This document shows positions 3,266-50,899 of a stretch of 64,000 bases of DNA, one piece after another. The stretch is from Candidatus Poribacteria bacterium (GTDB lineage Bacteria; Poribacteria; WGA-4E; PCPOR2b). A model generated the notes under the pieces. The model was given only the letters and a program-made list of their open reading frames with translations. It was not told the DNA's origin and made no database searches. The position numbers and the translations under genes were made by a program. The stretch is taken from positions 4,230 to 68,229 of the forward strand of contig CBDBMC010000001.1 of the NCBI GenBank assembly GCA_965207095.1, read 5' to 3'. How positions within the stretch are numbered: the stretch's first letter is position 1; each line of letters opens with the position of its first letter.

Positions 3266-3286
3266 GATAACCTCCTTAAATTATCG

Positions 3287-3381
3287 GGACTTACGCAACT
3301 TTAGCACACGAGGGGTAGATTTATGATTTTTAACCCCCTAAATCCCCCTTATGGGGACTTATGAACGCGCTGCATAAGTCC
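3287..3381. mobile_element. MITE-like element, family D (TIR GGACTTACGCA / TGCATAAGTCC; core CCCCCTAAATCCCCCTTAT..GGGGAC)
   Basis: 11-bp inverted termini at 3287-3297 and 3371-3381. A longer copy lies at 55524-55708. Core-only copies lie at 57873-57900, about 60290, 61395-61414 plus 61661-61672 (split) and about 63252-63280. Confidence 0.6.
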
Positions 3382-3531
3382 TAATTATCTTCAATCCATT
3401 GAACCTATACACCTAAAGTCGTTAAGGCATAGAGCCAGTGGTGTAGGTTCGGTTGAACGGGAAGCGCGAAACTCAACGCTTGACTATGCACAAATCGTTT
3501 CCTCGTTATCCCGTCTTCCGGTTTTCATGCT

Positions 3532-4647: not shown

Positions 4648-4681
4648 TGTTATACCGCCCTTTCACTATCTGACCGCTGAT

Positions 4682-4986
4682 TATAGTGAATTCTAAAAAT
4701 CGCTCATGTTAAGATTTAATGCAAAGAAACCGAGTTTTCACCTCCCTCTAATCCCCCCGCATGCAGGGTGAGGGTCAGTTTCTCTGTGTGCTTTGCACTT
4801 TCTTTTTACATGAGCCCTAAAAACAGGTAGACGCTTTTTCCAGTGGCGATTGTAGGATTAACCTTCTCAGCCGGTATAATCGGGGCAAGTCCCGGCTTCG
4901 CCGAGGATCCTCCCCGATACATCGGGGCAGGCTGAATCGGGAGATGCCCCTCCTACAGTGTCCAAACAGTTATGAAATCTACTATA
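4682..4986. mobile_element. MITE family 1b (TATAGTGAATTCTAAAAA ... GAAATCTACTATA), carrying a nested family-G MITE
   Basis: Same element as 22425-22584, whose sequence ...GAATTCTAAAAACAGGTAGAC... is uninterrupted. Here that site is split by the 4701-4816 insertion. Confidence 0.65.
4701..4816. mobile_element. MITE family G copy 1 (TIR GCTCATGT..TGCAA), nested, flanked by CTAAAAA duplication
   Basis: CTAAAAA at 4693-4699 and 4817-4823. The termini are CGCTCATGTTAAGATTTAATGCAAAG / CTTTGCAC..ACATGAGCC. A second copy in inverted orientation lies at 41535-41646. Confidence 0.7.
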
Positions 4987-4992
4987 AATTGA

Positions 4993-13516: not shown

Positions 13517-13688
13517 AGTGTCCCTCGTTCGATTTGAAAACCGCCTTTTACATAAAAATGGGAGCATGGGCATAAAATCCTATCTGATCGCCCGATGCTC
13601 CCATGGTTGGACAGGAATTAGTTTTATGGCGCGCAAGCCGTGTTGGGTTTTACGAACCGCGTCTTGCACGCCAGATGAATTAGATGAC

Positions 13689-25530: not shown

Positions 25531-25738
25531 CCTGGGAGAAAATATAGAATTAACGATGATATTTGTAGTTCAATGCTTCAGAATCAATGCGGGGCAAGAT
25601 GCCCGTCTACGATAGGTGTGGAGTCTGAGCATGCCGCTTGATATCCGATAAATCGGACAACTACAGTCTGAAGTGCGTAATTCTTAACCGTTTCGCGTTA
25701 CTCGCATATTGACTGTACGGAAAGAAAGGAAAAACAGA

Positions 25739-31104: not shown

Positions 31105-31125
31105 TAATATTAGGAGATGCTCTTT

Positions 31126-33759
31126 ATGTCCAAACATCATTTCTTCGCCACTTTGATTGGGGTTCATCAGCAATTTCATCTCGTCAGAATTATCTGCCTA
31201 TCGGCCGCGATCATCGGTGCTCAAATAGCCTTCGACCAACTACAGATTACCCAAGACGCCCATGCCAGTTCTCAACAGCAGGCTGCGGTTGTTCAGATTC
31301 GTGACTCCAATCTACGCGCCGCAATAGCGGAAGCACTTGGTAAAAGCCCGAATGTGCCAATTACTACGGAAGAGATGGCTACATTAAGAGAACTCGAACT
31401 TCCGAACAGAGGTGTCCAAGATTTGACAGGCCTTCAGTTTGCAACCAATCTGAGACGGTTGAGGCTTGGAGATTGGGGCACGGGGAATCAGGTATCCGAC
31501 ATCTCGCCGCTATCGGGATTAATTAATCTACGTGAGCTCTGGCTTAGTCATAACCCCGTATCCGATCTATCCCCTCTGAGGGGCTTAAACAATCTTACTA
31601 GGCTGGAAATTCATAATACTCAGGTATCCGACCTGTCGCTGATCGCTGGACTAATCAGGCTGCAGCGGTTAGGTATTTCTCATGCCAACGTATCCGACCT
31701 GTCACCGATTGCTGGACTCATTAATCTAGAGAGATTCGATTTTCACGATGACAGCATATCGGACATATCGCCGTTGGCGCAATTAATCAACCTGAAAGAA
31801 TTTAACACGTGGGGCAATCCCATAACCGATATATCACCTATAGCGCAACTATCAAAGCTGGAGGTGGTAAATATTTGCGACGGAGATCTGACAGATCTCA
31901 CACCCTTAGTAGGATTAACAGGTTTGAAGGAACTGTATCTTGCCAACGACAGAATATCCGATATATCACCGCTTGCGAGATTAACCGGGTTAGAGCGTTT
32001 GAACCTTCAACGCAACCAATTTTCGGATATATCGCCGCTTGCAAGGTTAACTAACCTAGAATGGCTAGATCTTAGCGCGAACGAAATATCGAACATATCC
32101 CCGCTTGTGGGGTCAACCAACCTGACATGGTTAGATGTTTCAAACAACCAGATCTCCAATTTTTCGCCTCTGGACGGGATACGCGAGAATATAACGCTCA
32201 TTTGGCACGGCAATCCGGCGTTCCCACGAGGGGGACCTAAGATAGAGGGACCGTGGCTATGGGTATTGTTACTGAACACAGAACTGAGTAACACTATAGA
32301 TTTATTATCAGAAGCGAGTGGAGGTACAGTGACGGAGAGGGAGGTTGCCACCCATGGAGCAACAGAGGGGAAACCGGTTGGCGATGATGTGTGGACCGCC
32401 CACAGACTCCCGCCTGCGGGACATAAAAACATTGAAGATATGCTTCAACGTTCCATCCGTGGCGCCGTTCTTTACGGTTCCGTGTCCTTGCATTCACCAC
32501 GGGGGCAGGACACAACAATGTATGTCGGCGGTGAAGACGGTGTAAAGGTTTGGCTCAATGGAACTCTGATTTACGACCGTATCAGTAGTTGGAGTGGCAC
32601 CGATTATCAAGATTTTTTCCCAGTCACACTGAAACAGGGGAGAAATGTGTTGTTGGTCGCAGTTCCCACGCTAGGTACCGGCTTCTTTGGATTTGAACCC
32701 GGCACCGAATATACAGCCGCAAACTCCGGTATCAGTTACACCTTCTCCCAGACGCCAATTCACACGGGTGATACGTTTACCGTCGACATCGGTGCAAAAG
32801 ATTTCTTTGACCTGGCGGGCTGGCAATTTGATATCGCTTTCGACCCTGCAATCCTTGAAGCCATCAACGTGACTGAAGGCGATCTCCTTAAAATGGGTGG
32901 TGCAACCACCTTCTTTCAGGCTGGAACTATTAATAACAGAAGCGGAAGAATCACAAAACTCTTTGCCACACGACAGTCCACCGGTGGGGTCAGTGGAACG
33001 GACACCTTACTTCAGGTGACCTTCAGGGCAAAATCTGCCGGCAAAACAGCGTTGACACTGCGGAACGTGGAGTTCGGCCATCCCACCGGAGCACTTATCT
33101 CCGCAGGTCCGCATGAAGTTGGGATTACTGTAGGAGGACAACTTGCCACTGGTGACGTAAATCGAGATGGTATTGTCACCATTTTGGATTTGATTCTCAT
33201 CGCACGGCAGTTGGGGCAAAGGGTCTCCGCCAACTCACCGGCAGATCTCAATGGTGATGGTTCCGTCAGTATCCTCGATCTTATTCTTGCGGCACGAAGC
33301 CTTGGCAGCACCACGACACCTGCTGCACCTGCGATTGGGGTAGAAAGCATAGATGCTGCGACAGTAGCAGCATGGATAGCACAAGCACGGTTAGAAGATG
33401 ATGGGTCGCTTGCTTTCAAAGAAGGTATCGAAATACTTGAAACAATGTTAGCCTCGCTAATTCCTGAAGAGACCGCCCTGTTGGCAAACTATCCGAATCC
33501 GTTTAACCCGGAAACGTGGATATCTTATCAGTTGGCAGAGGCAGCGGAGGTTACACTAACCATCTATGATATGAACGGAAAGATGGTTCGATGTTTGGAA
33601 GTGGGTCATCAGGCAGCAGGTATGTATCGGACTCGAAGCCGGGCAGTGTATTGGGATGGGTGCAACCAACTTGGTGAGGCTGTTGCTAGTGGAGTCTACT
33701 TCTACGCACTAAGGGCAGATAATTTCACAGCTACGCGACGGATGCTTATATTAAAATAA
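31126..33759 (+). CDS. LRR1: internalin-type LRR + beta-sandwich + cohesin + dockerin + Por/T9SS-type CTD secreted protein
   Basis: The signal-anchor region is MSKHHFFATLIGVHQQFHLVRIICLSAAIIGAQIA..AHA. About 12 22-residue LRRs (L..L.L..N.ISDISPLAGLTNL) follow, then a GPWLW..VWLNG..VTLKQGRNVLLV jelly-roll-like domain. The cohesin contains DTFTVDIGAKDFFDLAGWQFDIAFDPAILEAINV. The dockerin (from nt 33151) is GDVNRDGIVTILDLILIARQLG..DLNGDGSVSILDLILAARSLG. The tail is NYPNPFNPETW..YFY..RRMLILK. The ORF track start is 31117; ATG 31126 fits the RBS better. Confidence 0.85.
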   Translation: MSKHHFFATLIGVHQQFHLVRIICLSAAIIGAQIAFDQLQITQDAHASSQQQAAVVQIRDSNLRAAIAEALGKSPNVPITTEEMATLRELELPNRGVQDLTGLQFATNLRRLRLGDWGTGNQVSDISPLSGLINLRELWLSHNPVSDLSPLRGLNNLTRLEIHNTQVSDLSLIAGLIRLQRLGISHANVSDLSPIAGLINLERFDFHDDSISDISPLAQLINLKEFNTWGNPITDISPIAQLSKLEVVNICDGDLTDLTPLVGLTGLKELYLANDRISDISPLARLTGLERLNLQRNQFSDISPLARLTNLEWLDLSANEISNISPLVGSTNLTWLDVSNNQISNFSPLDGIRENITLIWHGNPAFPRGGPKIEGPWLWVLLLNTELSNTIDLLSEASGGTVTEREVATHGATEGKPVGDDVWTAHRLPPAGHKNIEDMLQRSIRGAVLYGSVSLHSPRGQDTTMYVGGEDGVKVWLNGTLIYDRISSWSGTDYQDFFPVTLKQGRNVLLVAVPTLGTGFFGFEPGTEYTAANSGISYTFSQTPIHTGDTFTVDIGAKDFFDLAGWQFDIAFDPAILEAINVTEGDLLKMGGATTFFQAGTINNRSGRITKLFATRQSTGGVSGTDTLLQVTFRAKSAGKTALTLRNVEFGHPTGALISAGPHEVGITVGGQLATGDVNRDGIVTILDLILIARQLGQRVSANSPADLNGDGSVSILDLILAARSLGSTTTPAAPAIGVESIDAATVAAWIAQARLEDDGSLAFKEGIEILETMLASLIPEETALLANYPNPFNPETWISYQLAEAAEVTLTIYDMNGKMVRCLEVGHQAAGMYRTRSRAVYWDGCNQLGEAVASGVYFYALRADNFTATRRMLILK

Positions 33760-34562: not shown

Positions 34563-37500
34563 ATGTCCCAACATCATTTCTTCTCCACTTTGATTGGCGT
34601 TGATAAGCAATTTCGTCTCATTAGTATTATCTGCCTATTGATAGTCATCCTCGGTTTCCAGAATACATCCGCCCAACAACAGATAGCCGTAGATGCCTAC
34701 GCTATCTTTGAACAGAGCTGCCTTATCTGCCACGGTCCCCAAGGTGCCTATAAAGAAACACTCCTCATTGAACACAACGCACTCATCGAAAACGGAACCG
34801 TTGTACCGGGCAACCCCAACGCCTCCGAACTGTATAAACGACTCATAACCACTGAAATAGCCAAACGGATGCCGCTCCAACAACCCCCTCTATCCACTCA
34901 AGCAATTAATACCATCCGTAACTGGATTTTGGCAGGTGCACCCGATTGGGCAGCAACCACCACACCGACTGGCGACTTTATCTCGCACAACGAGATACTT
35001 AATGACATTGAGACGCACCTGATGTCGCTTTCACCGTTTGACCGTGCCTTTGCCCGTTACTTCACGATGACCCATCTCTATAACGCGGGGGTGGCGGCAC
35101 AGATACTTCAAGAATACCGAAAAGCACTCTATAAACTGGTCAATAGCCTCTCATGGGGGGTTGACGTCATCAACCCAGAATCCATCGACTCACAAGGCAC
35201 TATCTTCTACATCGACCTCAGACAATATGAGTGGGACGTCAATGATGGCTGGGGACAGATAGAAGCGGTATATCCTTACCACATCTCATTTGATGCACCC
35301 GCACAGGCAACACTGCAGCAACAACTCGGACGGTTACAGACAGAAACCAATAGTAGCGTCCCATCGGTACATGTCGACTGGTTCATAGCAACCGCATCTC
35401 TACCCCCACTCTACCACAATCTGCTCTCTCTACCATTGACAGATAGGGCGTTAGAGGCACGATTGGAGGTCGATGTGAATCGCAACATCAGCAATGCACC
35501 GGGCGTGCGTGTCTGGCGCGCAGGCACTGACGAGTCGGGCGTCTCCCAGAGCAACCGGGTGTTGGAACGGCATAACTCTCGATATGGCGCATATTGGAAA
35601 AGCTACGACTTTGCTGGAAGTGCTGGGACACAGAATATCTTCACCCACCCACTCAATTTCACCCAAGATGGTGGGGAGGTTATCTTCAATCTACCCAACG
35701 GGTTGCAAGGGTACTATATAGTAGACGCTACCGGTTCACGATTGGACGCAGCACCGATAAGCATTGTCTCCGATCCCGCAGCCAGTGACCCCACCGTCCG
35801 GACTGGGTTGTCCTGTTTCGGTTGTCATATAGAGGGGATGAACACCTTTGAGGACCAGGTGCGGGCTGTGATAGAGAGTAATACCAACCCAACTTACGAC
35901 AAAGCACAAGCGTTGCGGTTGTATGTAGAGAAGGCAGATATGGATGTACGGGTTCAAGAAGATATAGAAACGTATAGAGCCGCACTGGAAGAGACGGGGG
36001 GTGCGTTTGACGATATTGAACCGATCTCTCGGTTCCATGAGGCGTTTGAGGGCCCAGTCGATGTGGCACACGCTGCGGCTGTTGTGGGATTAGAGACTGA
36101 AGATTTGTTGGAAAAGATACGTGAGAACACAGGATTACAGAATGCAGGGTTGTTGGTGTTAGAGAGTAATGGGAGTATGAAAAGGGATACCTGGACATCA
36201 AGTTTCCAAGATGTGCTTTTTGCGCTGAATTTTCCGACACGGGTCGTGACACCTCCCATTGTGACACCTCCCATTGTGACGCCGCCGGTACGACCACCGG
36301 GTAGGGTTGTTCAGATTCCGGACGTAAACCTGCATGCAGCAATTGCAGAGGTACTTGGCAAAGGTTCCAATACCCCAATTACTGTAAGGGAGATGGAAGG
36401 ATTGCAAAGACTTTATATCAATAACAGAGGCATCCGTGATTTGACAGGACTTCAGTTTGCAATCAATCTGAGAGAGCTAAATCTCGATGATAATGAAATC
36501 TCCGATCTCTCACCGCTGGCAGGCTTAATCAACCTGCGAGACCTTCGGCTTCACCATAACCCCTTATCTGATATATCTCCCGTGCGCGGGCTAACAAATC
36601 TTACTCGCTTAGAGTTTGATGAATCTTCAGTTTCCGATATATCTCCCGTGAGGAACTTAACAAATCTCACCTATCTGGAGTTTGATCGCACTTTGGTCTC
36701 TGATATATCTCCCGTAAGGAATTTAACAAATCTCACTTACTTGGAGTTTCACGGTACTTTGGTATCAGACTTTTCGCCGATCATAGAATTAACCAATTTG
36801 GAGCACTTACATTTTGATGGTATCAATGTGTCCAACCTATCAATAGTTACAAGATTAGTCAGTCTTAAACGCCTTCTCTTGGGCAACTTAGGGGGTTCAT
36901 CAATCAATTTGTCGTTTCTGGCGCGATTAACAAACCTGGAGGAGATTAGTATGCACAATGGAGATATATCCAACCTTTCACCTTTGGCAGGTTTAACACG
37001 TTTGAGAGAACTACATATTACCAACTCCGGAATATCAGATATATCTGCCCTCGCCGGGCTAACCGAGTTAGTCCGTGTAGATCTTGCGGCCAACGAAATC
37101 TCAGATATATCTCCCCTTGCAGGCTTAACCAACTTAAGATGGGTGATCCTCCGCGAAAACCAGATTACTAACCTTTCCCTTGTGAATAGGTTACGTGCGA
37201 ATATACCGACGTTCGTCTGGCACGACAACCCAGGCTTCCCAGAGGTGGGTCCCACAATAGAGGGACCGTGGCTATGGGTTGTGTTACCAAACACAAGACC
37301 TAGTACCACAGATTTACTGTCAGAAGCGAGTGGAGGGACAGTGACAGAGACAGAGATTGCTACCTATGGGGCAATAGAGGGACAACCCGTCGGCGATGAT
37401 GTCTGGACATTCCGCAGCCTCCCGCCCACGGGGTGGAACAACGTTGACAAGATGCTTGGGGACCGCATCGATGGTGCCACCCTCTACGGTACGGTGTCCC

Positions 37501-38771
37501 TCTATTCTCCACGGCAACAGGTGAAAACCCTATACGTCGGCAGCCATAACGAGTTTAGGGTCTGGCTCAACGGCGAGTTGATTCACGACTCGCTCCGTTA
37601 CCACGCCAGCTTTGGTTACACAGATTCGCTCCCGGTCACACTCAAGCAGGGCAGAAATGTCCTGTTAGTCTCGGTTAGAGCCCAATATAACGCTTTCTTT
37701 GGATTTGAGCCGGGGACCGTATACGAAGTGGCAAACCCCGGCGTCAGTTACACCTTTTCTAAGTCTCCAATTCACCGTGAAGACACCTTTACTCTCGATA
37801 TTGGTGCAAAGGAGGTCATAGACATGGTAGCCTGGCAGTTTGATATCGCCTTCGACCCTGCTCACCTTGAAGCTATCAGTGTGACTGAAGGCAATTTCCT
37901 AAAGATGGGTAGCAGCACCCTCTTTCGGAGCGGAACCATTAACAACGCAACAGGTAGAATTGAGGGAATCAGCGCCTTACGGTTTGCTACTACCCACGGG
38001 GTCCGTGGAACCGGCACCATTGTTCAGGTGACGTTTAAGGCGAAAGCCTCTGGGGAAACACGGGTGACACTGGAAAAGTTCCAATTTGGCGCTCTCAGCG
38101 CGGACGAGATTCCCGCAGGACCCCACCAAATCCGTTTCACTGTGGAGGGACGGCTTGCGACCGGGGATGTCAATCGGGACGGAAGGGTTAGTGTTCTGGA
38201 CTTGATTCTCATTGCACAGCAGTTGGGGCAGAGGGTGCCCGCTGGCTCGCCGGTAGACCTCAACGGTGATGGTGTCGTCAGCATCCTCGACCTCATCCTC
38301 ACGGCACGGGCACTTGGAAATACTACAACTCCCGCCGCACCGGCTGGTGAAATGGAAGGGATAGATCCTGTGATGATAGAGGCCTGGATTGCACAAGCTC
38401 GGTTGGAAAATGACGGCTCGCTTGCCTTCAAGCAGGGTATCGAAATGCTTGAAAACCTACTCGCCGCGTTGGTTCCTGAAGAAACTGCGTTGTTGGCAAA
38501 CTATCCCAATCCGTTTAACCCAGAGACATGGATACCTTATCAGTTAGCAACTCCCGCAGACGTCACACTGACCATTTATGATATGAATGGACAGATGGTT
38601 CGACATATAGCGGTAGGGCATCAGACAGCAGGTATGTATCGGACTCGAAGCCGTGCCGTCTATTGGGACGGACGCAACCAACTCGGTGAGGCTGTTGCCA
38701 GTGGAGTCTACTTCTACACACTAACGGCAGATAATTTCACAGCTACACGACGGATGCTGATTCTAAAATAA
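34563..38771 (+). CDS. Long paralog A: PSCyt-like haem-binding head (2x CXXCH) + PT linker + LRR + beta-sandwich + cohesin + dockerin + CTD
   Basis: CLICH at 34719-34733 sits within a planctomycete-cytochrome-c-like segment (..GNPNASELYKRL..MP..PPLS..INTIRNWILAGAP). CFGCH is at 35814-35828. The linker is VVTPPIVTPPIVTPPVRPP. The remaining architecture matches LRR1. The ORF track starts at GTG 34554; ATG 34563 is homologous to the paralog starts. Confidence 0.85.
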   Translation: MSQHHFFSTLIGVDKQFRLISIICLLIVILGFQNTSAQQQIAVDAYAIFEQSCLICHGPQGAYKETLLIEHNALIENGTVVPGNPNASELYKRLITTEIAKRMPLQQPPLSTQAINTIRNWILAGAPDWAATTTPTGDFISHNEILNDIETHLMSLSPFDRAFARYFTMTHLYNAGVAAQILQEYRKALYKLVNSLSWGVDVINPESIDSQGTIFYIDLRQYEWDVNDGWGQIEAVYPYHISFDAPAQATLQQQLGRLQTETNSSVPSVHVDWFIATASLPPLYHNLLSLPLTDRALEARLEVDVNRNISNAPGVRVWRAGTDESGVSQSNRVLERHNSRYGAYWKSYDFAGSAGTQNIFTHPLNFTQDGGEVIFNLPNGLQGYYIVDATGSRLDAAPISIVSDPAASDPTVRTGLSCFGCHIEGMNTFEDQVRAVIESNTNPTYDKAQALRLYVEKADMDVRVQEDIETYRAALEETGGAFDDIEPISRFHEAFEGPVDVAHAAAVVGLETEDLLEKIRENTGLQNAGLLVLESNGSMKRDTWTSSFQDVLFALNFPTRVVTPPIVTPPIVTPPVRPPGRVVQIPDVNLHAAIAEVLGKGSNTPITVREMEGLQRLYINNRGIRDLTGLQFAINLRELNLDDNEISDLSPLAGLINLRDLRLHHNPLSDISPVRGLTNLTRLEFDESSVSDISPVRNLTNLTYLEFDRTLVSDISPVRNLTNLTYLEFHGTLVSDFSPIIELTNLEHLHFDGINVSNLSIVTRLVSLKRLLLGNLGGSSINLSFLARLTNLEEISMHNGDISNLSPLAGLTRLRELHITNSGISDISALAGLTELVRVDLAANEISDISPLAGLTNLRWVILRENQITNLSLVNRLRANIPTFVWHDNPGFPEVGPTIEGPWLWVVLPNTRPSTTDLLSEASGGTVTETEIATYGAIEGQPVGDDVWTFRSLPPTGWNNVDKMLGDRIDGATLYGTVSLYSPRQQVKTLYVGSHNEFRVWLNGELIHDSLRYHASFGYTDSLPVTLKQGRNVLLVSVRAQYNAFFGFEPGTVYEVANPGVSYTFSKSPIHREDTFTLDIGAKEVIDMVAWQFDIAFDPAHLEAISVTEGNFLKMGSSTLFRSGTINNATGRIEGISALRFATTHGVRGTGTIVQVTFKAKASGETRVTLEKFQFGALSADEIPAGPHQIRFTVEGRLATGDVNRDGRVSVLDLILIAQQLGQRVPAGSPVDLNGDGVVSILDLILTARALGNTTTPAAPAGEMEGIDPVMIEAWIAQARLENDGSLAFKQGIEMLENLLAALVPEETALLANYPNPFNPETWIPYQLATPADVTLTIYDMNGQMVRHIAVGHQTAGMYRTRSRAVYWDGRNQLGEAVASGVYFYTLTADNFTATRRMLILK
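34672..36334 (+). repeat. 1.66-kb segment about 99.8% identical to 43887-45549 (head domain of long paralogs A and B)
   Basis: Constant offset of 9215 nt with no indels. I found only 4 differences (A positions 35000, 35039, 36026 and 36176), all synonymous third-position transitions. Confidence 0.9.
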
Positions 38772-38859: not shown

Positions 38860-41499
38860 ATGTCCAAACATTATTTCTTCGCCACTCTGATTGGGGTTCA
38901 TAAGCAATTTCATCTCGTCAGAATTATCTGTCTATCGGCGGCGATCATCGGCACTCAAATAGGATTCGACCAACTACAGATTGCCCAAGACGCTCATGCC
39001 AGTTCTCAACAGCAGGCCGTGGTTGCTCGTATCCCTGACCCAAACCTACGCGCCGCAATCGCAGAGGAACTTGGCAAAAAGCCTAATGATCCGATTACTG
39101 TACAAGAGATGGAAAGGTTGGGAAGGCTCGACGCGCGCAATAGGGGCATCCAAGATTTGACAGGGCTCCAGTTCGCAATAAATCTGAGGAGTCGGTTGGA
39201 TCTCAGGGACAATCAGATTTCTGACATCTCACCGATTGCCGGCTTAACCGAACTACGCGAACTCGAAATTAATAGGAACACAATATCGGATATATCCCCT
39301 GTCAGGAATTTGACAAATCTTACTCTCTTGGTTCTCAAGGGCAATCAGATTTCCGACCTCTCACCGATTGCCGGCTTAATTAACTTGCGGGGACTCTATC
39401 TTGACGATAATCTCTTCTCCGATCTTTCTGTCCTGAAAGGTTTAACTAATCTAGAGGTGTTACACTTTAGCCAAAATAGAGGTGTATCCGATATATCCCC
39501 ACTTGCAGGATTAGTCAACCTGAAAACGATTGGTTCTTGGGGTCACTCCATATCTGATTTATCGCCACTTGCGAGATTAACAGAATTGGAGATAATAAAT
39601 TTTTGTGGTGGTAATATCTCCAATCTTACCCCCTTGGCGGGCTTAACAGGTTTGAAAGAACTGTATATTGCAGGAGAAAAAGTGTCGGATATATCCCCGG
39701 TTGCGCGACTAACCGGGTTAACTCGGTTGGGACTTGAGGGCAACGACATATCGGATATATCGCCCCTTGCGGGATTAACGAATTTGAAATGGCTGCGGAT
39801 TAATAACAACGACATATCGGACGTATCGCCGATTGCGAAATTAACCAACTTAACATGGCTATCCGTCAAGAGCAACAACATTTCCGATCTTTCACCTCTG
39901 GATGGGATACGCGAGAATCTAACGACGCTCCTTTGGCACGACAATCCGGCCTTCCCGAAAGGGGGACCAAAGATAGAGGGACCATGGTTATGGGCCTTGG
40001 TACCGGACAGGGAAATAGATAGTAGTACGGATTTACTATCAGAGGCAAGTGATGGTGCGGTAACGGAGATGGAGGTCTCCACCCACGGGGCAACGGAGGG
40101 AAAATCGGTTGGGAATAGCGTGTGGACCTCCCATAGACTCCCGCCTTCAGGACATGATAACATTGGAAGGATGCTGAAAGAATCCATCCGTGACGGCGTC
40201 CTCTATGGCACTGTGGCTCTCCATTCACCCCGGCAACAGGAAACAACAATATACGTCGGTAGTGAGGATGAGTCAAAGGTCTGGCTCAACGGGATTTTGA
40301 TTTACGAGAACTTCCGTAGACGTGATGGTGATAATTACACAGATTTTTTCTCGGTCACGCTGAAGCAGGGGATAAATGTCTTGTTAGTTGCAGTTGAAAT
40401 CATTGGTAACAATGGTGATGTTTTTTTAGGCTTTGAACCCGGCACAGAATATATAGCCACAAACCCGGGTATCAGTTACACTTTCTCCAAAACACCAATT
40501 CATACGGGTGATACGTTTACCGTCGACATCGGTGCAAAAGGTTTCTTTGACTTGGCAGGCTGGCAATTTGATATCACCTTCGACCCTGCAATCCTTGAAG
40601 CCATCAACGTGATTGAAGGCGATCTCCTTAAAATGGACGGGGCAACTACTTTCTTTCAGAGCGGGACGATTGATAACGCAAGCGGTAGAATCACAAAAAT
40701 CAATGCCGCACGGACATCCACCGGTGGGGTCAATGGGACCGGTACCTTACTTCAGGTCACCTTCAGGGCAAAATCTGCCAGCAAAACAGCGTTGACACTG
40801 CGGAACGTCGAGTTCGGTGATCCCACCGCGACACTTATCTCCGCAGGTCCGCATGAAGTTCGGATTACTGTAGGAGGACAACTCGCCACAGGAGATGTGA
40901 ATCGAGATGGTACTGTCACCATTTTGGATCTGATTCTTATCGCACGACAGTTGGGGCAAAGGGTAGCCGCCAACTCACCGGCGGATCTCAACGGTGATGG
41001 TTCCGTCAGCATCCTCGACCTGATTCTTGCAGCACGAAGTCTTGGCAGCACCACAGCGCCTGCTGCGCCATCTGTTGGCACAGAAAGTGTCGATGCCGCT
41101 ACAATAGAAGCATGGATAGCACAGGCTCGATTGGAAGATGACGGGTCGCACCCCTTCAAACAGGGCATCGAACTTCTTGAAAAACTGCTCGCCTCGCTAA
41201 TTCCTGAAGAGACTGCATTGCTTCGTAACTATCCGAACCCGTTTAATCCGGAGACGTGGATACCGTATCAACTCGCCCAAGCCACCGATGTGACGCTTAC
41301 CATTTATGACGCCAAAGGGGTGTTGGTACGTCAATTGGATTTAGGATATCAGCAGGCGGGGCACTATACAGATAGGGCGCGAGCGGTATATTGGGACGGA
41401 TGCAACCACTTAGGCGAGTCAGTCGGAAGTGGGATCTACTTCTATCAACTACGCGCAGGAGATTACTCCACGGTCCGAAAGATGTCAATTCTGAAATAG
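38860..41499 (+). CDS. LRR2: internalin-type LRR + beta-sandwich + cohesin + dockerin + CTD secreted protein
   Basis: 879 aa. The N-terminus MSKHYFFATLIGVHKQFHLVRIICLSAAIIG is about 90% identical to LRR1 and the module order is the same. The tail is NYPNPFNPETWIPYQL..YFYQL..RKMSILK. Confidence 0.85.
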   Translation: MSKHYFFATLIGVHKQFHLVRIICLSAAIIGTQIGFDQLQIAQDAHASSQQQAVVARIPDPNLRAAIAEELGKKPNDPITVQEMERLGRLDARNRGIQDLTGLQFAINLRSRLDLRDNQISDISPIAGLTELRELEINRNTISDISPVRNLTNLTLLVLKGNQISDLSPIAGLINLRGLYLDDNLFSDLSVLKGLTNLEVLHFSQNRGVSDISPLAGLVNLKTIGSWGHSISDLSPLARLTELEIINFCGGNISNLTPLAGLTGLKELYIAGEKVSDISPVARLTGLTRLGLEGNDISDISPLAGLTNLKWLRINNNDISDVSPIAKLTNLTWLSVKSNNISDLSPLDGIRENLTTLLWHDNPAFPKGGPKIEGPWLWALVPDREIDSSTDLLSEASDGAVTEMEVSTHGATEGKSVGNSVWTSHRLPPSGHDNIGRMLKESIRDGVLYGTVALHSPRQQETTIYVGSEDESKVWLNGILIYENFRRRDGDNYTDFFSVTLKQGINVLLVAVEIIGNNGDVFLGFEPGTEYIATNPGISYTFSKTPIHTGDTFTVDIGAKGFFDLAGWQFDITFDPAILEAINVIEGDLLKMDGATTFFQSGTIDNASGRITKINAARTSTGGVNGTGTLLQVTFRAKSASKTALTLRNVEFGDPTATLISAGPHEVRITVGGQLATGDVNRDGTVTILDLILIARQLGQRVAANSPADLNGDGSVSILDLILAARSLGSTTAPAAPSVGTESVDAATIEAWIAQARLEDDGSHPFKQGIELLEKLLASLIPEETALLRNYPNPFNPETWIPYQLAQATDVTLTIYDAKGVLVRQLDLGYQQAGHYTDRARAVYWDGCNHLGESVGSGIYFYQLRAGDYSTVRKMSILK

Positions 41500-43777: not shown

Positions 43778-46700
43778 ATGCGTAAATGCGATTTCGTTCC
43801 CAATTTGATTAGAACCTGTCAGAAACAACATCTTGCCTCACTCATCACGCTATTGATATTCACCGTCAGTTCTCAAGATATATCTGCGCAACAACAGATA
43901 GCCGTAGATGCCTACGCTATCTTTGAACAGAGCTGCCTTATCTGCCACGGTCCCCAAGGTGCCTATAAAGAAACACTCCTCATTGAACACAACGCACTCA
44001 TCGAAAACGGAACCGTTGTACCGGGCAACCCCAACGCCTCCGAACTGTATAAACGACTCATAACCACTGAAATAGCCAAACGGATGCCGCTCCAACAACC
44101 CCCTCTATCCACTCAAGCAATTAATACCATCCGTAACTGGATTTTGGCAGGTGCACCCGATTGGGCAGCAACCACCACACCGACTGGCGACTTTATCTCG
44201 CACAACGAGATACTCAATGACATTGAGACGCACCTGATGTCGCTTTCACCGTTCGACCGTGCCTTTGCCCGTTACTTCACGATGACCCATCTCTATAACG
44301 CGGGGGTGGCGGCACAGATACTTCAAGAATACCGAAAAGCACTCTATAAACTGGTCAATAGCCTCTCATGGGGGGTTGACGTCATCAACCCAGAATCCAT
44401 CGACTCACAAGGCACTATCTTCTACATCGACCTCAGACAATATGAGTGGGACGTCAATGATGGCTGGGGACAGATAGAAGCGGTATATCCTTACCACATC
44501 TCATTTGATGCACCCGCACAGGCAACACTGCAGCAACAACTCGGACGGTTACAGACAGAAACCAATAGTAGCGTCCCATCGGTACATGTCGACTGGTTCA
44601 TAGCAACCGCATCTCTACCCCCACTCTACCACAATCTGCTCTCTCTACCATTGACAGATAGGGCGTTAGAGGCACGATTGGAGGTCGATGTGAATCGCAA
44701 CATCAGCAATGCACCGGGCGTGCGTGTCTGGCGCGCAGGCACTGACGAGTCGGGCGTCTCCCAGAGCAACCGGGTGTTGGAACGGCATAACTCTCGATAT
44801 GGCGCATATTGGAAAAGCTACGACTTTGCTGGAAGTGCTGGGACACAGAATATCTTCACCCACCCACTCAATTTCACCCAAGATGGTGGGGAGGTTATCT
44901 TCAATCTACCCAACGGGTTGCAAGGGTACTATATAGTAGACGCTACCGGTTCACGATTGGACGCAGCACCGATAAGCATTGTCTCCGATCCCGCAGCCAG
45001 TGACCCCACCGTCCGGACTGGGTTGTCCTGTTTCGGTTGTCATATAGAGGGGATGAACACCTTTGAGGACCAGGTGCGGGCTGTGATAGAGAGTAATACC
45101 AACCCAACTTACGACAAAGCACAAGCGTTGCGGTTGTATGTAGAGAAGGCAGATATGGATGTACGGGTTCAAGAAGATATAGAAACGTATAGAGCCGCAC
45201 TGGAAGAGACGGGGGGTGCGTTTGACGATATTGAACCGATTTCTCGGTTCCATGAGGCGTTTGAGGGCCCAGTCGATGTGGCACACGCTGCGGCTGTTGT
45301 GGGATTAGAGACTGAAGATTTGTTGGAAAAGATACGTGAGAACACAGGATTACAGAATGCAGGGTTGTTGGTGTTAGAGAGTAATGGGAGCATGAAAAGG
45401 GATACCTGGACATCAAGTTTCCAAGATGTGCTTTTTGCGCTGAATTTTCCGACACGGGTCGTGACACCTCCCATTGTGACACCTCCCATTGTGACGCCGC
45501 CGGTACGACCACCGGGTAGGGTTGTTCAGATTCCGGACGTAAACCTGCGTGCCGGAATAGCAGGGGCACTTGGTAAAAGCGCCAATGCCTCCATTACTGT
45601 AGGGGAGATGGAAGGATTGGAAGAACTTTATGTCAGAAATAGAGGCATCCGTGATTTGACAGGACTTCAGTTTGCAATCAATCTGAGAAGGCTAAATCTC
45701 GATAATAATGAATTCTCCGATCTCTCACCGCTGGCAGGCTTAATCAACCTAGAGGAACTCTGGCTTAACGAGAGTTTCGTGTCTGATTTATCTCCCTTGA
45801 GAGGATTGATAAATCTTTTTAGACTGTGGCCTCGACGCTCTCTGATTTCTGACCTCTCACCTATAGCAGGTTTAATCAACCTACGAAGCATCTCCCTTCG
45901 GGGCAATCCTCTATCCGATATATCCCCCTTGAGAGGGTTGATAAATCTCACTGAACTGTGGGTTGATGATGATACTCAGGTATCCGACCTCTCACCGATT
46001 GCAGGATTACCCAATCTGGAGCGTTTAGCTTTTGACGGTGACAAGGTATCCAACCTGTCGCCGCTTGCAAGATTGGTTAATTTGAAACGCATTCGCATAG
46101 ACGACTTAGAAGGTTCATCAATCAATTTATCCGCCCTTGCGGCATTAACAGACCTGGAGGAGATTAGTATTCACGACGGAGATAGATTGGACCTTTCACC
46201 TTTGGCAGGTTTAACAGGTTTGAGAGAACTACATATTACTAACTCTGGAATCTCAGATATACGTCCCCTTGCACGGTTAACCGGATTGGTCCGTATGAAT
46301 CTTTCAGAGAACGAAATCTCTGATATATCTCCGCTTCTAGGGTTAACCAATTTGAAATGGGTAATCCTCATCCGCAACCAGATTACTAATCTTTCCCTTG
46401 TGAATAGGTTACGTGCGAATATACCAACCTTCGTTTGGCACGACAATCCGGGCTTCCCAAAGGTGGGTCCAACAATAGAGGGACCGTGGCTATGGATTGT
46501 GTTACGGAACACAGACCGGCATAGAAGTGCGGACTTGCTGTCAGAAGCGAGTGGCGGGGCGGTGACAGAGACAGAGATTGCTACCTATGGGGTAACAGAG
46601 GGACAACCCCTCGGCGATGATGTCTGGACATTCCGCACACTCCCACCTACGGGCTGGAACAACGTTGACAAGATGCTTGGGGACCGCATCGATGGTGCCA

Positions 46701-48031
46701 CCCTTTACGGTACGGTGTCCCTCTATTCTCCACGGCAACAGGTGAAAACCCTATACGTCGGCAGCCATAACGAGTTTAGGGTCTGGCTCAACGGCGAGTT
46801 GATTCACGACTCGCTCCGTTACCACGCCAGCTTTGGTTACACAGATTCGCTCCCGGTCACACTCAAGCAGGGCAGAAATGTCCTGTTAGTCTCGGTTAGA
46901 GCCCAATATAACGCTTTCTTTGGATTTGAGCCGGGGACCGTATACGAAGTGGCAAACCCCGGCGTCAGTTACACCTTTTCTAAGTCTCCAATTCACCGTG
47001 AAGACACCTTTACTCTCGACATTGGTGCAAAGGAGGTCATAGACATGGTAGCCTGGCAGTTTGATATCGCCTTCGACCCTGCTGACCTTGAAGCTATCAG
47101 TGTGACTGAAGGCAATTTCTTAAAGATGGGTAGCAGCACCCTCTTTCAGAGCGGTACTATCAACAACAGAGCAGGTCGGATTGAGGGACTCAGCGCCTTG
47201 CGGTTTGCTACTACCCACGGGGTCCGCGGGACCGGCACCATTGTTCAGGTGACGTTTAAGGCGAAAGCCTCTGGGGAAACACGGGTGACACTGGAAAAGT
47301 TCCTATTCGGCGCTCTCAGCGCGGACGAGATTCCCGCAGGACCCCACCAAATCCGTTTCACTGTGGAGGGACGGCTTGCGACCGGGGATGTGAATCGAGA
47401 TGGAAGGGTCAGTGTTCTGGACTTGATTCTCATTGCACAGCAGTTGGGGCAGAGGGTATCCGCTGGCTCACCGGTGGATCTCAACGGTGATGGTATTGTC
47501 AGCATCCTCGACCTCATCCTCACAGCACGGGCACTTGGCAATACTACAACTCCCGCTGCACCGGCTGGTGAAATGGAAGGGATGGATCCTGCGATGATAG
47601 AAGTGTGGATAGCGCAGGCACGGTTGGAAGATGATGGCTCACTTGCCTTCAAAGAGGGCATCGAGATGCTTGAAAGACTATTAGCTTCCCTAATACCTAA
47701 AGAGACCGCGTTGTTAGCAAACTATCCCAATCCGTTTAACCCGGAAACGTGGATACCGTATCAGTTGGCAGAGGCAGCGGAGGTCACGCTAACCATCTAT
47801 GATATGAACGGCGGGATAGTTCGACAGCTGGCATTGGGACATCAAGGAGCGGGTATATATCGGACGAGAAGCCGTGCCGTCTATTGGGACGGACGCAACC
47901 GACTCGGTGAGGTTGTTGTCAGTGGGCTCTATTTCTACACACTCACAGTTCGTTCTCCCAATTCCATCGGGACAAGCGAGACCGGGACCGATGAATTTAC
48001 AGCGACACGGAAGATGCTAATATTAAAATGA
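43778..48031 (+). CDS. Long paralog B: PSCyt-like 2x CXXCH head + PT linker + LRR + beta-sandwich + cohesin + dockerin + CTD (CTD carries a 13-aa insertion)
   Basis: 1417 aa. CXXCH motifs are at 43934-43948 and 45029-45043. The head is identical in protein sequence to paralog A, the LRR block is divergent, and the middle and C-terminal modules are again nearly identical. Confidence 0.85.
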   Translation: MRKCDFVPNLIRTCQKQHLASLITLLIFTVSSQDISAQQQIAVDAYAIFEQSCLICHGPQGAYKETLLIEHNALIENGTVVPGNPNASELYKRLITTEIAKRMPLQQPPLSTQAINTIRNWILAGAPDWAATTTPTGDFISHNEILNDIETHLMSLSPFDRAFARYFTMTHLYNAGVAAQILQEYRKALYKLVNSLSWGVDVINPESIDSQGTIFYIDLRQYEWDVNDGWGQIEAVYPYHISFDAPAQATLQQQLGRLQTETNSSVPSVHVDWFIATASLPPLYHNLLSLPLTDRALEARLEVDVNRNISNAPGVRVWRAGTDESGVSQSNRVLERHNSRYGAYWKSYDFAGSAGTQNIFTHPLNFTQDGGEVIFNLPNGLQGYYIVDATGSRLDAAPISIVSDPAASDPTVRTGLSCFGCHIEGMNTFEDQVRAVIESNTNPTYDKAQALRLYVEKADMDVRVQEDIETYRAALEETGGAFDDIEPISRFHEAFEGPVDVAHAAAVVGLETEDLLEKIRENTGLQNAGLLVLESNGSMKRDTWTSSFQDVLFALNFPTRVVTPPIVTPPIVTPPVRPPGRVVQIPDVNLRAGIAGALGKSANASITVGEMEGLEELYVRNRGIRDLTGLQFAINLRRLNLDNNEFSDLSPLAGLINLEELWLNESFVSDLSPLRGLINLFRLWPRRSLISDLSPIAGLINLRSISLRGNPLSDISPLRGLINLTELWVDDDTQVSDLSPIAGLPNLERLAFDGDKVSNLSPLARLVNLKRIRIDDLEGSSINLSALAALTDLEEISIHDGDRLDLSPLAGLTGLRELHITNSGISDIRPLARLTGLVRMNLSENEISDISPLLGLTNLKWVILIRNQITNLSLVNRLRANIPTFVWHDNPGFPKVGPTIEGPWLWIVLRNTDRHRSADLLSEASGGAVTETEIATYGVTEGQPLGDDVWTFRTLPPTGWNNVDKMLGDRIDGATLYGTVSLYSPRQQVKTLYVGSHNEFRVWLNGELIHDSLRYHASFGYTDSLPVTLKQGRNVLLVSVRAQYNAFFGFEPGTVYEVANPGVSYTFSKSPIHREDTFTLDIGAKEVIDMVAWQFDIAFDPADLEAISVTEGNFLKMGSSTLFQSGTINNRAGRIEGLSALRFATTHGVRGTGTIVQVTFKAKASGETRVTLEKFLFGALSADEIPAGPHQIRFTVEGRLATGDVNRDGRVSVLDLILIAQQLGQRVSAGSPVDLNGDGIVSILDLILTARALGNTTTPAAPAGEMEGMDPAMIEVWIAQARLEDDGSLAFKEGIEMLERLLASLIPKETALLANYPNPFNPETWIPYQLAEAAEVTLTIYDMNGGIVRQLALGHQGAGIYRTRSRAVYWDGRNRLGEVVVSGLYFYTLTVRSPNSIGTSETGTDEFTATRKMLILK
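43887..45549 (+). repeat. Partner of the 34672-36334 near-identical segment
   Basis: See 34672-36334. A second near-identical block is about 37441-37860 versus about 46662-47085 (offset 9221, about 3 differences). Confidence 0.9.
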
Positions 48032-48094: not shown

Positions 48095-50899
48095 ATGATT
48101 AAACGTCATTTAGTCCCGGGTTTGATTAGGGTTCGTAAGCAACCGCATTTCATCAAAATCATCTGTCTATTGGCAGTCATTCTCGGCATTCAAACAGTAG
48201 CCGTCCAACTACAGATTATCGAAGATGCCTATGCTAGCTCTCAACAGGTTGTTCGTATCCCGGACCCAAACCTACGTGCGTTGATTGCAGAGACGCTTGG
48301 CAAAAGCCCCAATGCCCCAATTACTGTCGAAGATATGGAAAGGCTGAGAGAAATTGATGCGAGAGAAGACAAGGGGATCAAAGATTTGACAGGACTTCAA
48401 TATGCGACCAATCTGGTCGAGTTATATCTTGGTTGGTACTCTGGGGAGGGCAATCAGGTCAAGGATCTCTCGCCGGTAGCAGGCTTAACCAACCTCCGTG
48501 TGCTTTTTCTTCACCATAACCCTATATCCGATCTATCTCCCGTGAGAGGCTTAACAAATCTGACCGATCTGATGCTTCACGATACTTTGGTATCGGATAT
48601 ATCCCCCGTCAGGGGCTTAACCAACCTTACTAAATTACACTTTCACGGGACTGAGGTAACTGACCTATCACCAATCCGCGGACTCATTAACCTGAAAAAC
48701 TTAGCCTTTTCTGATCCAGATCTATCTGATATATCGCCGCTTGCAGGCTTAATTAATCTAGACACGATTTTCTCGTGGAACCACTCTATATCCGATTTAT
48801 CCGCTTTGTCCGGCTTGACAAAATTGAGGAGTATAGATTTGTGCGGTGGAAACATATCGGATTTAACGCCTTTGGGGAGCTTGACCGGTTTGAAAGAGCT
48901 GTATTTAGTCGGTAACGATATATCGGATATATCACCGCTTGCTAGATTAACCGGGTTAACCCGTGTGTCGCTTAGGGTTAATAACATATCGAATCTATCG
49001 CCCATTAGGAGCCTGACCCAATTGGATTGGTTAGAACTTGGCGATAACGATATATCGGATATATTACCCCTCGCGGGATTAACCGGATTGACCCATTTGG
49101 ATCTTCAGCTCAACGCCATCTCAAATCTATTCTCGCTTGCAGGATTAACCAACTTAACATGGCTTAACCTTCAAAACAACAACATCTCGGACGTGGTCCC
49201 GCTTGCGGGTTTGACCAACTTAACTTGGCTAAATGTTGTAGAAAACGAGATCTCCGATCTTTCGCCTTTGGACGGGTTCCGCGAGAATCTAAAACTCATC
49301 TATCACGGCAATCCAGCGTTCCCGAAAGGGGGACCGCAAATAGAAGGGCCATGGTTATGGACAATCGTCCCGACAGGCGGGAGGGCTGGTAGTGATGCTG
49401 CTGCTTCTGGCATAGATTTTCTAGCACAAACAAGTGGCGGTGAAGTAACGGAGTTGGCGGTTGCAGCAGTCGGTGCAAATGAAGGATCCCCTGTCGGAGA
49501 CAGCCTGTGGGTAGCCGAGAGAATTTCGACAGCGGACGATAACATCAACACAATGGCGAACGCGACCGGACTAGGAACAGGCAATATAAACCACCATGTT
49601 GCTTACGGTTCAATTACCTTGAATACACCGCGAGAGCAAGACACAATGATGTTTGTAGGGAGTAATGATGCTGTCAAGATTTGGCTCAATGGACAGTTAG
49701 TTCACAACAATCCTATCGATCGGAAGGTTAGCGGCTATGCGGATATTTTTCCTGTTACGTTAAAGATGGGAATAAATATCTTATTAGTTGCTGTTTACGA
49801 GGGAGGCGGTACTTGGAGCGGCTTTTTTGGGTTTGAACCCGACACCGAATATACAACGGCAAACCCCGGTGTCAGTTACACCTTCTCCAAGACGCCAATT
49901 CACCGTGACGACACCTTTACCCTCGACATCGGGGCAAGAGATTTCCTTGACTTGGCAGGTTGGCAGTTTGATATCATCTTCGACCCTGCAATCCTTGAAG
50001 TTATCAACGTGATTGAAGGCAATTTCCTTAAAATGGGCGGTGCAAACACCTTCTTTCAGACTGGAACAATCAATAACGCAACCGGCAGAATCACAGGATT
50101 CACCGCTGCACGCACTTCCCCCGGTGGGATCAGTGGGACGGGCATACTCCTTCAGGTGACGTTCACGGCGAAAGCCGCAGGAGAAACAGACTTGACACTG
50201 CGGAACGTCGAGTTCGGCCATCCCACCGGGGCACTCATCCCAGCAGGTCCCCATCAAATACACATCACCGTGGGAGGACGAATTGCCACCGGGGACGTGA
50301 ATCGAGATGGTATTGTCACCATTTTGGATCTGATTCTCATCGCACGGCAGTTGGGGCAAAGGGTCTCCGCCAACGCACCGGCTGATCTCAACGGTGATGG
50401 TTCGGTCAGTATCCTTGACCTGATTCTTGCAGCACGAAATCTTGGCAGCACCACAGCGCCTGCTGCGCCTCCGATTGGGGTAGAAAACATAGATGCTGCT
50501 ACAATAGCCGCATGGATTGCAGAAGCACGGTTGGAAGATGATGGTTCACCTGTTTTCAAAGACGGTATCGAAATGCTTGAAAAAACGTTAGCCTCGCTGA
50601 TTCCTCAAGAGACTGCATTGCTTCATAACTATCCGAATCCGTTTAACCCGGAGACTTGGATACCGTATCAGTTGGCAGAGTCGGCAGACGTGACACTAGC
50701 AATTTATGATATGAACGGTCAATTGGTTCGACGTTTGGCATTGGGACATCAAGCAGCAGGTATGTATCGGACTCGAAGCCGCGCGGTGTATTGGGACGGA
50801 CGCAACCAACTTGGTGAGCCCCTCGCCAGTGGAGTCTACTTCTATACACTGACAGCGGATAATTTCACGGATACACGACGGCTGCTGATTCTAAAATAA
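48095..50899 (+). CDS. LRR3: internalin-type LRR (about 15 repeats) + beta-sandwich + cohesin + dockerin + CTD secreted protein
   Basis: 934 aa with the same module order as LRR1 and LRR2. The dockerin is GDVNRDGIVTILDLILIARQLG..DLNGDGSVSILDLILAARNLG. The tail is NYPNPFNPETWIPYQL..YFYTL..RRLLILK. Confidence 0.85.
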   Translation: MIKRHLVPGLIRVRKQPHFIKIICLLAVILGIQTVAVQLQIIEDAYASSQQVVRIPDPNLRALIAETLGKSPNAPITVEDMERLREIDAREDKGIKDLTGLQYATNLVELYLGWYSGEGNQVKDLSPVAGLTNLRVLFLHHNPISDLSPVRGLTNLTDLMLHDTLVSDISPVRGLTNLTKLHFHGTEVTDLSPIRGLINLKNLAFSDPDLSDISPLAGLINLDTIFSWNHSISDLSALSGLTKLRSIDLCGGNISDLTPLGSLTGLKELYLVGNDISDISPLARLTGLTRVSLRVNNISNLSPIRSLTQLDWLELGDNDISDILPLAGLTGLTHLDLQLNAISNLFSLAGLTNLTWLNLQNNNISDVVPLAGLTNLTWLNVVENEISDLSPLDGFRENLKLIYHGNPAFPKGGPQIEGPWLWTIVPTGGRAGSDAAASGIDFLAQTSGGEVTELAVAAVGANEGSPVGDSLWVAERISTADDNINTMANATGLGTGNINHHVAYGSITLNTPREQDTMMFVGSNDAVKIWLNGQLVHNNPIDRKVSGYADIFPVTLKMGINILLVAVYEGGGTWSGFFGFEPDTEYTTANPGVSYTFSKTPIHRDDTFTLDIGARDFLDLAGWQFDIIFDPAILEVINVIEGNFLKMGGANTFFQTGTINNATGRITGFTAARTSPGGISGTGILLQVTFTAKAAGETDLTLRNVEFGHPTGALIPAGPHQIHITVGGRIATGDVNRDGIVTILDLILIARQLGQRVSANAPADLNGDGSVSILDLILAARNLGSTTAPAAPPIGVENIDAATIAAWIAEARLEDDGSPVFKDGIEMLEKTLASLIPQETALLHNYPNPFNPETWIPYQLAESADVTLAIYDMNGQLVRRLALGHQAAGMYRTRSRAVYWDGRNQLGEPLASGVYFYTLTADNFTDTRRLLILK

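Follow-up and report, generated by a model that had tools for sequence, protein, structure and literature searches.

A 64,000-nucleotide (nt) stretch of the genome of a Candidatus Poribacteria bacterium (GenBank assembly GCA_965207095.1, contig CBDBMC010000001.1, positions 4,230 to 68,229 of the forward strand; this whole stretch is referred to below as the window) contains two long genes, here called A and B, that encode predicted exported proteins with an N-terminal head carrying two CXXCH haem-attachment motifs, followed by leucine-rich repeats (LRRs) and several further domains. The question that this locus raises is whether such a head truly binds haem and, if so, what a c-type haem module would be doing in front of an LRR protein. 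Our analysis suggests that the head of genes A and B is probably an exported dihaem c-type redox module, either catalytic or sensing in its role. What is new here is its second part, an undescribed and putative second haem domain on a multidomain c-type cytochrome. The start codon of gene A is preceded, at a distance of 7 nt, by the Shine-Dalgarno sequence AGGAGG, and the encoded protein comprises, in order, a signal peptide, the predicted dihaem head, a Pro/Thr-rich linker, the LRRs, an unassigned domain, a cohesin, a dockerin and a C-terminal domain (CTD) resembling FlgD_ig and the sorting domains of the type IX secretion system (T9SS). The coordinates of all of these features are collected in Table 1.

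An earlier interpretation of this DNA, made from its letters alone and referred to here as the sequence-only reading, had proposed a haem-binding head at 34563-36334, i.e., residues 1-590 of the gene A product, and had likened the surroundings of the first motif, CLICH, to the planctomycete PSCyt cytochrome module. The string that it cited, VVPGNPNASELYKRL..MP..PPLS..NWILAGAP, is indeed present, and the likeness was borne out by profile searches. When scanned alone, the head scores 24.1 bits against PSCyt1 (PF07635; Pfam cutoff 22), while 44 of 50 family members match the same model, with a best E-value of 9e-10, and distant relatives reach up to 63 bits. We also searched the sequences of the PDB, both with the single sequence and with a profile built from the 50 family members. 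The profile matched FoxE (5mab, E 2.5e-11), the Kuenenia cytochrome c-552 (7o38, 1.6e-7), the C-terminal domain of CcoP (6e-6) and cytochrome c6 (7e-4); all of the matches were to class-I cytochromes and all were restricted to residues 40-125 of the head. The head does, therefore, possess the PSCyt and cytochrome c homology on which the proposal depended, as the family profile matches solved cytochromes. The Met-Pro pair of the family aligned with the 'MP' of FoxE, c-552 and CcoP, and, among 127 representatives, Met103 and Pro104 are conserved at 100% and 99%, respectively. Judging by this homology, residues ~40-125 are a genuine class-I/PSCyt1 cytochrome c domain, and a haem at the first motif is very likely.

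The CXXCH motif, the downstream Met-Pro and the W..AGAP helix of this part of the head are shared with PSCyt1 domains and class-I cytochromes in general, and, like the products of genes A and B, for which export is predicted, many PSCyt1 proteins are long, exported and multidomain, with this domain coming first. The partners are, however, different. PSCyt1 is known together with PSCyt2, PSD1 and a neighboring DUF1501 gene, whereas here it is always followed by a domain of about 420 residues that contains its own CXXCH. PSCyt2 (PF07583) and PSD1 (PF07587) gave no match in genes A or B in the Pfam scan, nor were they found among the 25 most frequent Pfam matches in the 50 family members (E<=0.1). 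The search for PSCyt and related domains that the sequence-only reading had advised thus found PSCyt1 in the head, above its cutoff, and neither of the other two. Likewise, the idea of a PSCyt-type head held for residues ~40-125, while the remaining ~420 residues form a separate domain with no Pfam or PDB relative.

The second motif, CFGCH, does lie 365 residues downstream of CLICH, as previously noted, and it proved to be 100% conserved in the 127 representatives, with a family consensus of NG-L-S-C-M-x-C-H-x-x-G. The domain in which it resides can be modeled confidently: AlphaFold2 (AF2) gave a predicted local distance difference test score (pLDDT) of 90.6 and a predicted template-modeling score (pTM) of 0.90 for residues 136-560 alone, as compared to 86.4 and 0.75 for the whole head. 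In these models, an alpha/beta part (~140-415) is followed by a helical part (~416-555), with CFGCH ending a short helix (residues 416-421). A Foldseek comparison with 350,542 PDB chains found no neighbor for the whole head (best E 0.37) or for this domain (0.53), with template-modeling (TM) scores of 0.13 or less, and residues ~136-560 found no match in PDB sequences, in Pfam (50 members) or in NCBIfam, for which the scan of the head returned sub-threshold fragments only. By these searches, the ~420-residue domain with the second CXXCH is un-named and separate from the PSCyt1 homology, and, going by its predicted model and as far as Foldseek can see, its fold is unrepresented among solved structures. 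The mature protein contains four cysteines in all, each of them within one of the two CXXCH motifs. Since the histidine that follows the second cysteine pair is invariant and there are no other cysteines, we consider the second motif to be the likely site of a haem, and not of a disulfide or a metal, with somewhat less confidence than for the first.

Both motifs belong to a large family in which the two domains of the head occur jointly. On the basis of composition, 0.0004 CXXCH motifs would be expected in the gene A protein, while two are found. A HMMER scan of 1.84 billion cluster representatives (clusters at 50% identity) yielded 5,799 representatives that match the head at E<1e-3, including 1,552 at E<1e-30. 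The matches form a single stretch that covers residues ~40-555 of the query, indicating that the two domains form one evolutionary unit, and at least two CXXCH motifs are present in 353 of 359 full modules. Conservation was assessed in an alignment of 127 whole-module representatives that are 37-69% identical to the query. Both haem-attachment motifs and the predicted Met ligand (Cys53, Cys56, His57, Met103, Cys418, Cys421 and His422) are conserved in all 127, and a further ~100 positions are conserved at 90% or more, many of these being polar (Arg165, Asn194, Asp272, Arg332, Glu335, Asp349, Glu372, Asn379 and Arg541). At an overall identity of ~40%, strict invariance is seen at about 40 positions with polar or aromatic residues.

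The closest relatives of the head, at 58-78% identity, all come from Candidatus Poribacteria, where a single genome can hold at least four to five copies, as counted over the 78 best poribacterial loci. Relatives at ~40% identity belong, by their source names, to Chthonomonadales (Armatimonadota), Gemmataceae (Planctomycetota) and Blastocatellia (Acidobacteriota), and distant members are annotated at source as 'hypothetical' or as 'mono/diheme cytochrome c family protein'. One open reading frame (ORF) encodes the head, the LRRs, the middle domain, the cohesin, the dockerin and the CTD in 62 of 79 poribacterial loci, and in most of the remaining loci the same parts are found in the next ORF or lie beyond the end of the contig. 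A haem head on an LRR protein is thus the canonical poribacterial form. The sequence-only reading had not recognized this architecture as a known one. This remains true of the literature, as our searches found no description of the head module or of the poribacterial architecture, and the 2014 study of Poribacteria by Kamke et al. mentions only LRR proteins and Por-type CTDs (PMC3909097). It does not hold for the genomes, where the architecture is a standard, multi-copy poribacterial form and the head occurs in thousands of proteins.

Some poribacterial loci are split. In one of these (L001, 8001-12340), one ORF encodes the head and the next, after a gap of 24 nt, the LRR-cohesin-dockerin-CTD part, and L048, L067, L077, L041, L044 and L079 are likewise split, with the ORF in some of these breaking inside the LRR or middle region. 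Such split loci may be natural variants, frameshifts or assembly errors.

Within the window, the linker VVTPPIVTPPIVTPP, which starts at residue 561 (nt 36243), joins the head to the LRRs as had been described, and the further claim that the head is found in genes A and B and is absent from three shorter paralogues (LRR1-3, of ~880-930 residues each) also proved correct, with the short paralogues lacking exactly the head. Gene A and LRR1-3 share the leader MSKHxFFATLIGVHKQF.L..IICL..., which in LRR1-3 joins the LRRs directly at ..SSQQQ..VV(Q/R)IPD.NL; this IPD.NL.AAIAE junction is the same as that which follows the Pro/Thr linker in gene A. The shared leader and junction indicate that the head and the linker together are a precisely bounded insertion or deletion, i.e., a cassette.

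Genes A and B differ from each other in the manner of a mosaic. In the head, the synonymous divergence (dS) is 0.014 and the nonsynonymous divergence (dN) is 0, while dS rises to about 0.13 in the middle domain and the cohesin, to 0.54 in the LRRs, to 0.78 in the CTD and to 0.89 in the signal peptide. At the protein level, the LRRs are the most divergent part (68% amino acid identity, dN/dS 0.44), and the ~175-residue region between the LRRs and the cohesin, which gave no match in the Pfam scan and was detected by tblastn in most of the 79 poribacterial loci, is 93% conserved. Because the divergence is mosaic, it suggests that recent gene conversion homogenized the head of the two genes while their LRRs diversified. 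As judged from the dN of 0 between A and B, the head is under strong selection.

These observations can be assembled into a model of how the proteins may work. The products of genes A and B would be exported by the Sec pathway and directed to the cell surface, with the head making up the first ~520 mature residues. After export, a cytochrome c maturation system would link haem 1 to Cys53 and Cys56, with His57 and Met103 as the axial ligands, producing a low-spin class-I haem fit for electron relay. The same system would link haem 2 to Cys418 and Cys421 in the ~420-residue domain, with His422 as the proximal ligand and with conserved residues of the alpha/beta part building the distal side. The conserved polar residues listed above, together with the near-invariant His337 and Lys191, would then form a reactive or ligand-binding site. 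The LRRs would bind a target and so position the redox head, the cohesin and the dockerin would plug the protein into a multiprotein surface assembly, and the CTD would direct sorting at the outer membrane. As to the role of the head, redox catalysis by a relay haem and a reactive haem, with either a small oxidant or a ligand of the variable binding domain as substrate, is a tentative proposal that we would put a little short of an even chance. Our lean towards catalysis for genes A and B is due to most members having no N-terminal extension able to accommodate a cytoplasmic output domain and to the ~40 invariant polar and aromatic positions.

The dihaem cytochrome c peroxidases and MauG offer a precedent in terms of mode of action only, as they have two c-haems on one exported polypeptide, the arrangement proposed for the head, one being a high-potential relay haem with His/Met ligation and the other a candidate reactive haem. 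In the head, however, the putative second haem domain is not a duplicate of the cytochrome c fold, and membership in these families is unsupported, there being no Pfam match (50 members), no match of the profile to PDB sequences and no PDB fold match. An architectural analogy, and no more than that, can be drawn with animal peroxidasin, a secreted protein that combines LRRs and Ig domains with a haem peroxidase domain in which haem b is bound non-covalently or through ester links. There, too, LRR targeting is combined with a haem domain; the haem domains are unrelated, and both the domain order and the organisms differ.

Several points weigh against the proposal of an exported dihaem module and should be considered when referring to it. 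On the full-length protein, the PSCyt1 score drops to 21.7 bits, just under the cutoff of 22. None of the conserved candidates for the sixth ligand of haem 2 (His337 at 96%, Lys191 at 95%, His171 at 87% and His285 at 86%) is strictly invariant, such that His/His coordination and an open, reactive site are both possible for this haem. No conserved neighboring gene that would hint at a pathway was found at one poribacterial relative and three stand-alone relatives. Finally, export by way of the CTD is questioned by a single-cell study that found no structural genes of the Por/T9SS machinery in Poribacteria (PMC3909097).

The most serious rival to catalysis holds that the head is mainly a haem-based sensor of redox state, O2, NO, H2O2 or sulfide rather than an enzyme. 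In the proteins of genes A and B, such a sensor would tune how the LRRs and the cohesin-dockerin part bind or assemble, and in other phyla it would drive a Ser/Thr kinase. The sensing of redox state or small ligands was among the roles suggested by the sequence-only reading, and it gains indirect support from what the module is joined to. N-terminal extensions of more than 150 residues occur in 20 of 131 full-module representatives, of which eight are Ser/Thr kinases and four are FHA proteins. A hydrophobic 19-residue segment separates the cytoplasmic kinase or FHA domain from the cytochrome domain in all ten such members examined, and this transmembrane helix in front of the module, as in the layout of a receptor kinase, would place the kinase/FHA-fused module outside the membrane as an ectodomain. 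The module would accordingly be extracytoplasmic in at least Planctomycetota, Armatimonadota and Acidobacteriota, a location deduced from topology. Such a layout is known from the PAS-like domains of Geobacter GSU0582 and GSU0935 and from DcrA, in which an extracytoplasmic module with covalent haem precedes a transmembrane helix and a cytoplasmic signaling domain. Those sensor domains are of ~130 residues, bind a single haem and have PAS-like folds, whereas the head is of ~520 residues, has two predicted haems and an unrelated fold. A haem 2 with no invariant sixth ligand would also fit a sensor with an exchangeable or open site.

On the other hand, 111 of the 131 representatives have no N-terminal extension of more than 150 residues that could serve as a cytoplasmic output, and 114 carry C-terminal extensions of more than 100 residues made up only of binding or repeat domains. 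Among distant members, the C-terminal partners include TPR, WD40, FGE-sulfatase, beta-helix/pectinesterase-like, TonB_C, Big_5, NPCBM-associated, cyclophilin, EGF, HEAT and LRR domains. Genes A and B show no transmembrane or signaling part in the Pfam scan, and the invariance of ~40 polar and aromatic positions resembles an active site more than a sensor. We thus consider sensing to be the unlikelier of the two roles for the poribacterial proteins, while the kinase and FHA fusions keep it a serious rival. Irrespective of role, the head is, to judge from these fusions, a constant cassette joined to variable binding domains and, recurrently, to signaling domains.

A second rival accepts haem at the N-terminal motif only and regards the second CXXCH as a disulfide with a structural role, or as a metal site, within a domain that binds no haem. 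It draws on the lack of homology between the ~420-residue domain and any haem protein in the PDB, Pfam and Foldseek searches, on the absence of an invariant distal ligand, and on a faint match of residues 411-431 to the redox-disulfide domain model TIGR03980, which is non-significant (E 0.03). A CXXC disulfide, however, would not need a histidine, and His422 is 100% conserved together with both cysteines. In the AF2 model, moreover, the motif ends a short helix, as it does in c-type cytochromes, and a mature protein with no cysteines outside such motifs is typical of exported cytochromes c. The Ccm and Ccs maturation systems recognize little beyond an exported CXXCH, which further weighs against this explanation. 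We consider it improbable, and we retain the proposal of two haems.

It could also be argued, as the sequence-only reading had suggested, that the head is a tethered electron conduit serving extracellular electron transfer at the cell surface, since a haem domain with predicted His/Met ligation is here combined with domains for surface sorting and scaffolding. The protein would, however, have just two haems, and neither the window nor those related loci with gene content examined show a multihaem partner or a porin-cytochrome gene next to it. The usual fusion partners of the module are repeats that bind proteins or glycans, as well as kinases, and not respiratory components, and a simple wire would not need such heavy conservation of polar residues away from the haems. 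A conduit is thus very unlikely.

Still less likely is a kinship of the head with the fatty-acid cis/trans isomerase Cti (PF06934), of which it would be a diverged form acting on lipids. Cti is a periplasmic protein with a single haem, in which a haem c domain with His/Met ligation comes first and is followed by a large domain that lacks a cofactor (PMC11727003). The two proteins share this order of domains, with weak collinear similarity over ~100 residues. Weak CTI matches were found in 12 of 50 members (query residues 94-196 against profile positions 79-174, E 0.005), and hhalign with the Pa-Cti sequence, taken from the supplement of PMC11727003, aligned MP..LS..W..AGAP..R-x-(F/L)-x-L-x-HL(Y/F) with an E-value of 4.7e-4. 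Yet the Pfam score, 15.9 bits, falls short of the cutoff of 25, the aligned positions are 14% of the 692 in the profile, hmmsearch gave 7.5 bits, the profile-profile probability was 22-32%, and Cti has one CXXCH as compared to the two invariant motifs of the head family. Homology of the large domain to Cti is unproven, as the similarity does not reach beyond the last part of the cytochrome domain and one helix. Lastly, a chance motif or a pseudogene is ruled out by the conservation across the family and by the dN of 0.

Table 1 Positions in the window of genes A and B, of their parts and of the three paralogues without a head. Residue numbers (aa) refer to the gene A protein.
Feature	Coordinates	Strand	Basis or remark
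Gene A	34563..38771	+	1402-aa predicted exported multidomain protein, ORF from ATG
Gene A signal peptide, aa 1-36	34563..34670	+	core LISIICLLIVILGF, likely cleavage after TSA; read by eye
Class-I/PSCyt1-type cytochrome c domain, aa ~40-128	34680..34946	+	PSCyt1 score and family profile against PDB
Haem-attachment motif 1, CLICH (C53, C56, H57), aa 53-57	34719..34733	+	invariant in family
Met103-Pro104, Met103 being the predicted axial (sixth) ligand of haem 1	34869..34874	+	conservation, alignment
Un-named ~420-aa domain, aa 136-560	34968..36242	+	AF2 model, conservation
Haem-attachment motif 2, CFGCH (C418, C421, H422), aa 418-422	35814..35828	+	invariant in family
Pro/Thr-rich linker VVTPPIVTPPIVTPPVRPPGRVVQ, aa 561-584	36243..36314	+	sequence; model pLDDT <50
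LRR region, aa 585-885	36315..37217	+	LRR_4 and LRR_8 matches
Unassigned domain, aa 886-1062	37218..37748	+	conserved in paralogues and poribacterial homologues
Cohesin, aa ~1063-1196, then type-I dockerin, aa ~1197-1256	37749..38330	+	Pfam
C-terminal FlgD_ig/T9SS-type sorting-domain-like module, aa 1308-1402	38484..38771	+	Pfam
Gene B	43778..48031	+	1417-aa paralogue, same architecture; Pfam, comparison with A
Gene B head	43778..45547	+	protein-identical to gene A head, aa 37-590
Gene B CLICH	43934..43948	+	position in sequence
Gene B CFGCH	45029..45043	+	position in sequence
Short paralogue LRR1, without head	31117..33759	+	leader, LRRs, cohesin, dockerin, C-terminal domain
Short paralogue LRR2, without head	38860..41499	+	Pfam, sequence
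Short paralogue LRR3, without head	48095..50899	+	Pfam, sequence

The assignments downstream of the head in gene A are based on Pfam matches of different strengths. LRR_4 scores 99.3 bits in four stretches and LRR_8 scores 38.6 bits, while the cohesin (37.4 bits, cutoff 24.1) and Dockerin_1 (33.0 bits, cutoff 22.9) both exceed their cutoffs. At the C-terminus, FlgD_ig is above its cutoff (39 bits against 27) and Por_Secre_tail is below its own (23.2 bits against 27).

Other genes in the window encode proteins with related parts. These include an M36 peptidase with PPC and CTD (9506-13573, minus strand), a cohesin protein with Spond_N and CTD (13689-16448, minus strand), an LRR protein with dockerin and CTD (23595-25007, plus strand) that has a TTG start and LRRs from residue 6, such that it may be truncated, and a double-cohesin protein (41698-43284, plus strand). 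Taken together with the five LRR genes, these cohesin, dockerin and CTD proteins resemble a kit for surface assembly in the style of a cellulosome, with glycoside hydrolases missing. Upstream of this cluster lie a DUF6785/DUF6784 protein (7576-9504, minus strand) and three DUF4097 'toastrack'/SHOCT-like proteins (2075-6372, minus strand). Pairs of PSCyt2/PSD1 and DUF1501 genes were seen near relatives of the head in two cases, a proximity that we judged to be coincidental. The window gave no match to any RNA family in Rfam.

A separate observation concerns two adjacent ORFs at 25709-28471 (plus strand) that are divided by an in-frame TGA (26825-26827). The sequence around this codon, NCSRA-TGA-HAPTVAGL, is of the kind typically found at the selenocysteine of the formate dehydrogenase alpha subunit. 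The first ORF contains Fer2_4, Fer4, Molybdop_Fe4S4 and the N-terminal molybdopterin part, and the second contains the C-terminal molybdopterin part and Molydop_binding. A hairpin, GGUUGCC-GGUCU-GGCAGCC, is found 14 nt downstream, with a folding free energy (dG) of -23.5 kcal/mol and a z-score of -1.65. The two ORFs are probably a single gene of the FdhA type, encoding ~920 residues including selenocysteine, rather than two genes.

In its boldest form, which we regard as speculative and rather doubtful, our reading would make the ~420-residue domain a new haem c fold and its carriers a large unrecognized family of extracytoplasmic redox modules that provide kinase input in several phyla. The poribacterial member would then be a multi-copy surface haem enzyme that is targeted by LRRs, assembled through cohesin and dockerin, and peroxidasin-like in acting on host oxidants or matrix in symbiosis. 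If both haems are real, then exported dihaem proteins whose main domain is un-named and has no solved structure make up 5,800 or more clusters, defined at 50% identity. As the module recurs as the ectodomain of bacterial Ser/Thr kinases and FHA proteins, its ligand or reaction would be the input of many uncharacterized signaling systems, in Planctomycetota at the least and probably in further phyla. Poribacteria are dominant uncultured symbionts of sponges, and the head is a constant element of their multi-copy LRR/cohesin-dockerin surface proteins. As eukaryote-like repeat proteins are prime candidates for interaction with the host, a head with redox chemistry would mean that proteins so far regarded as pure binding scaffolds also have a biochemical activity.

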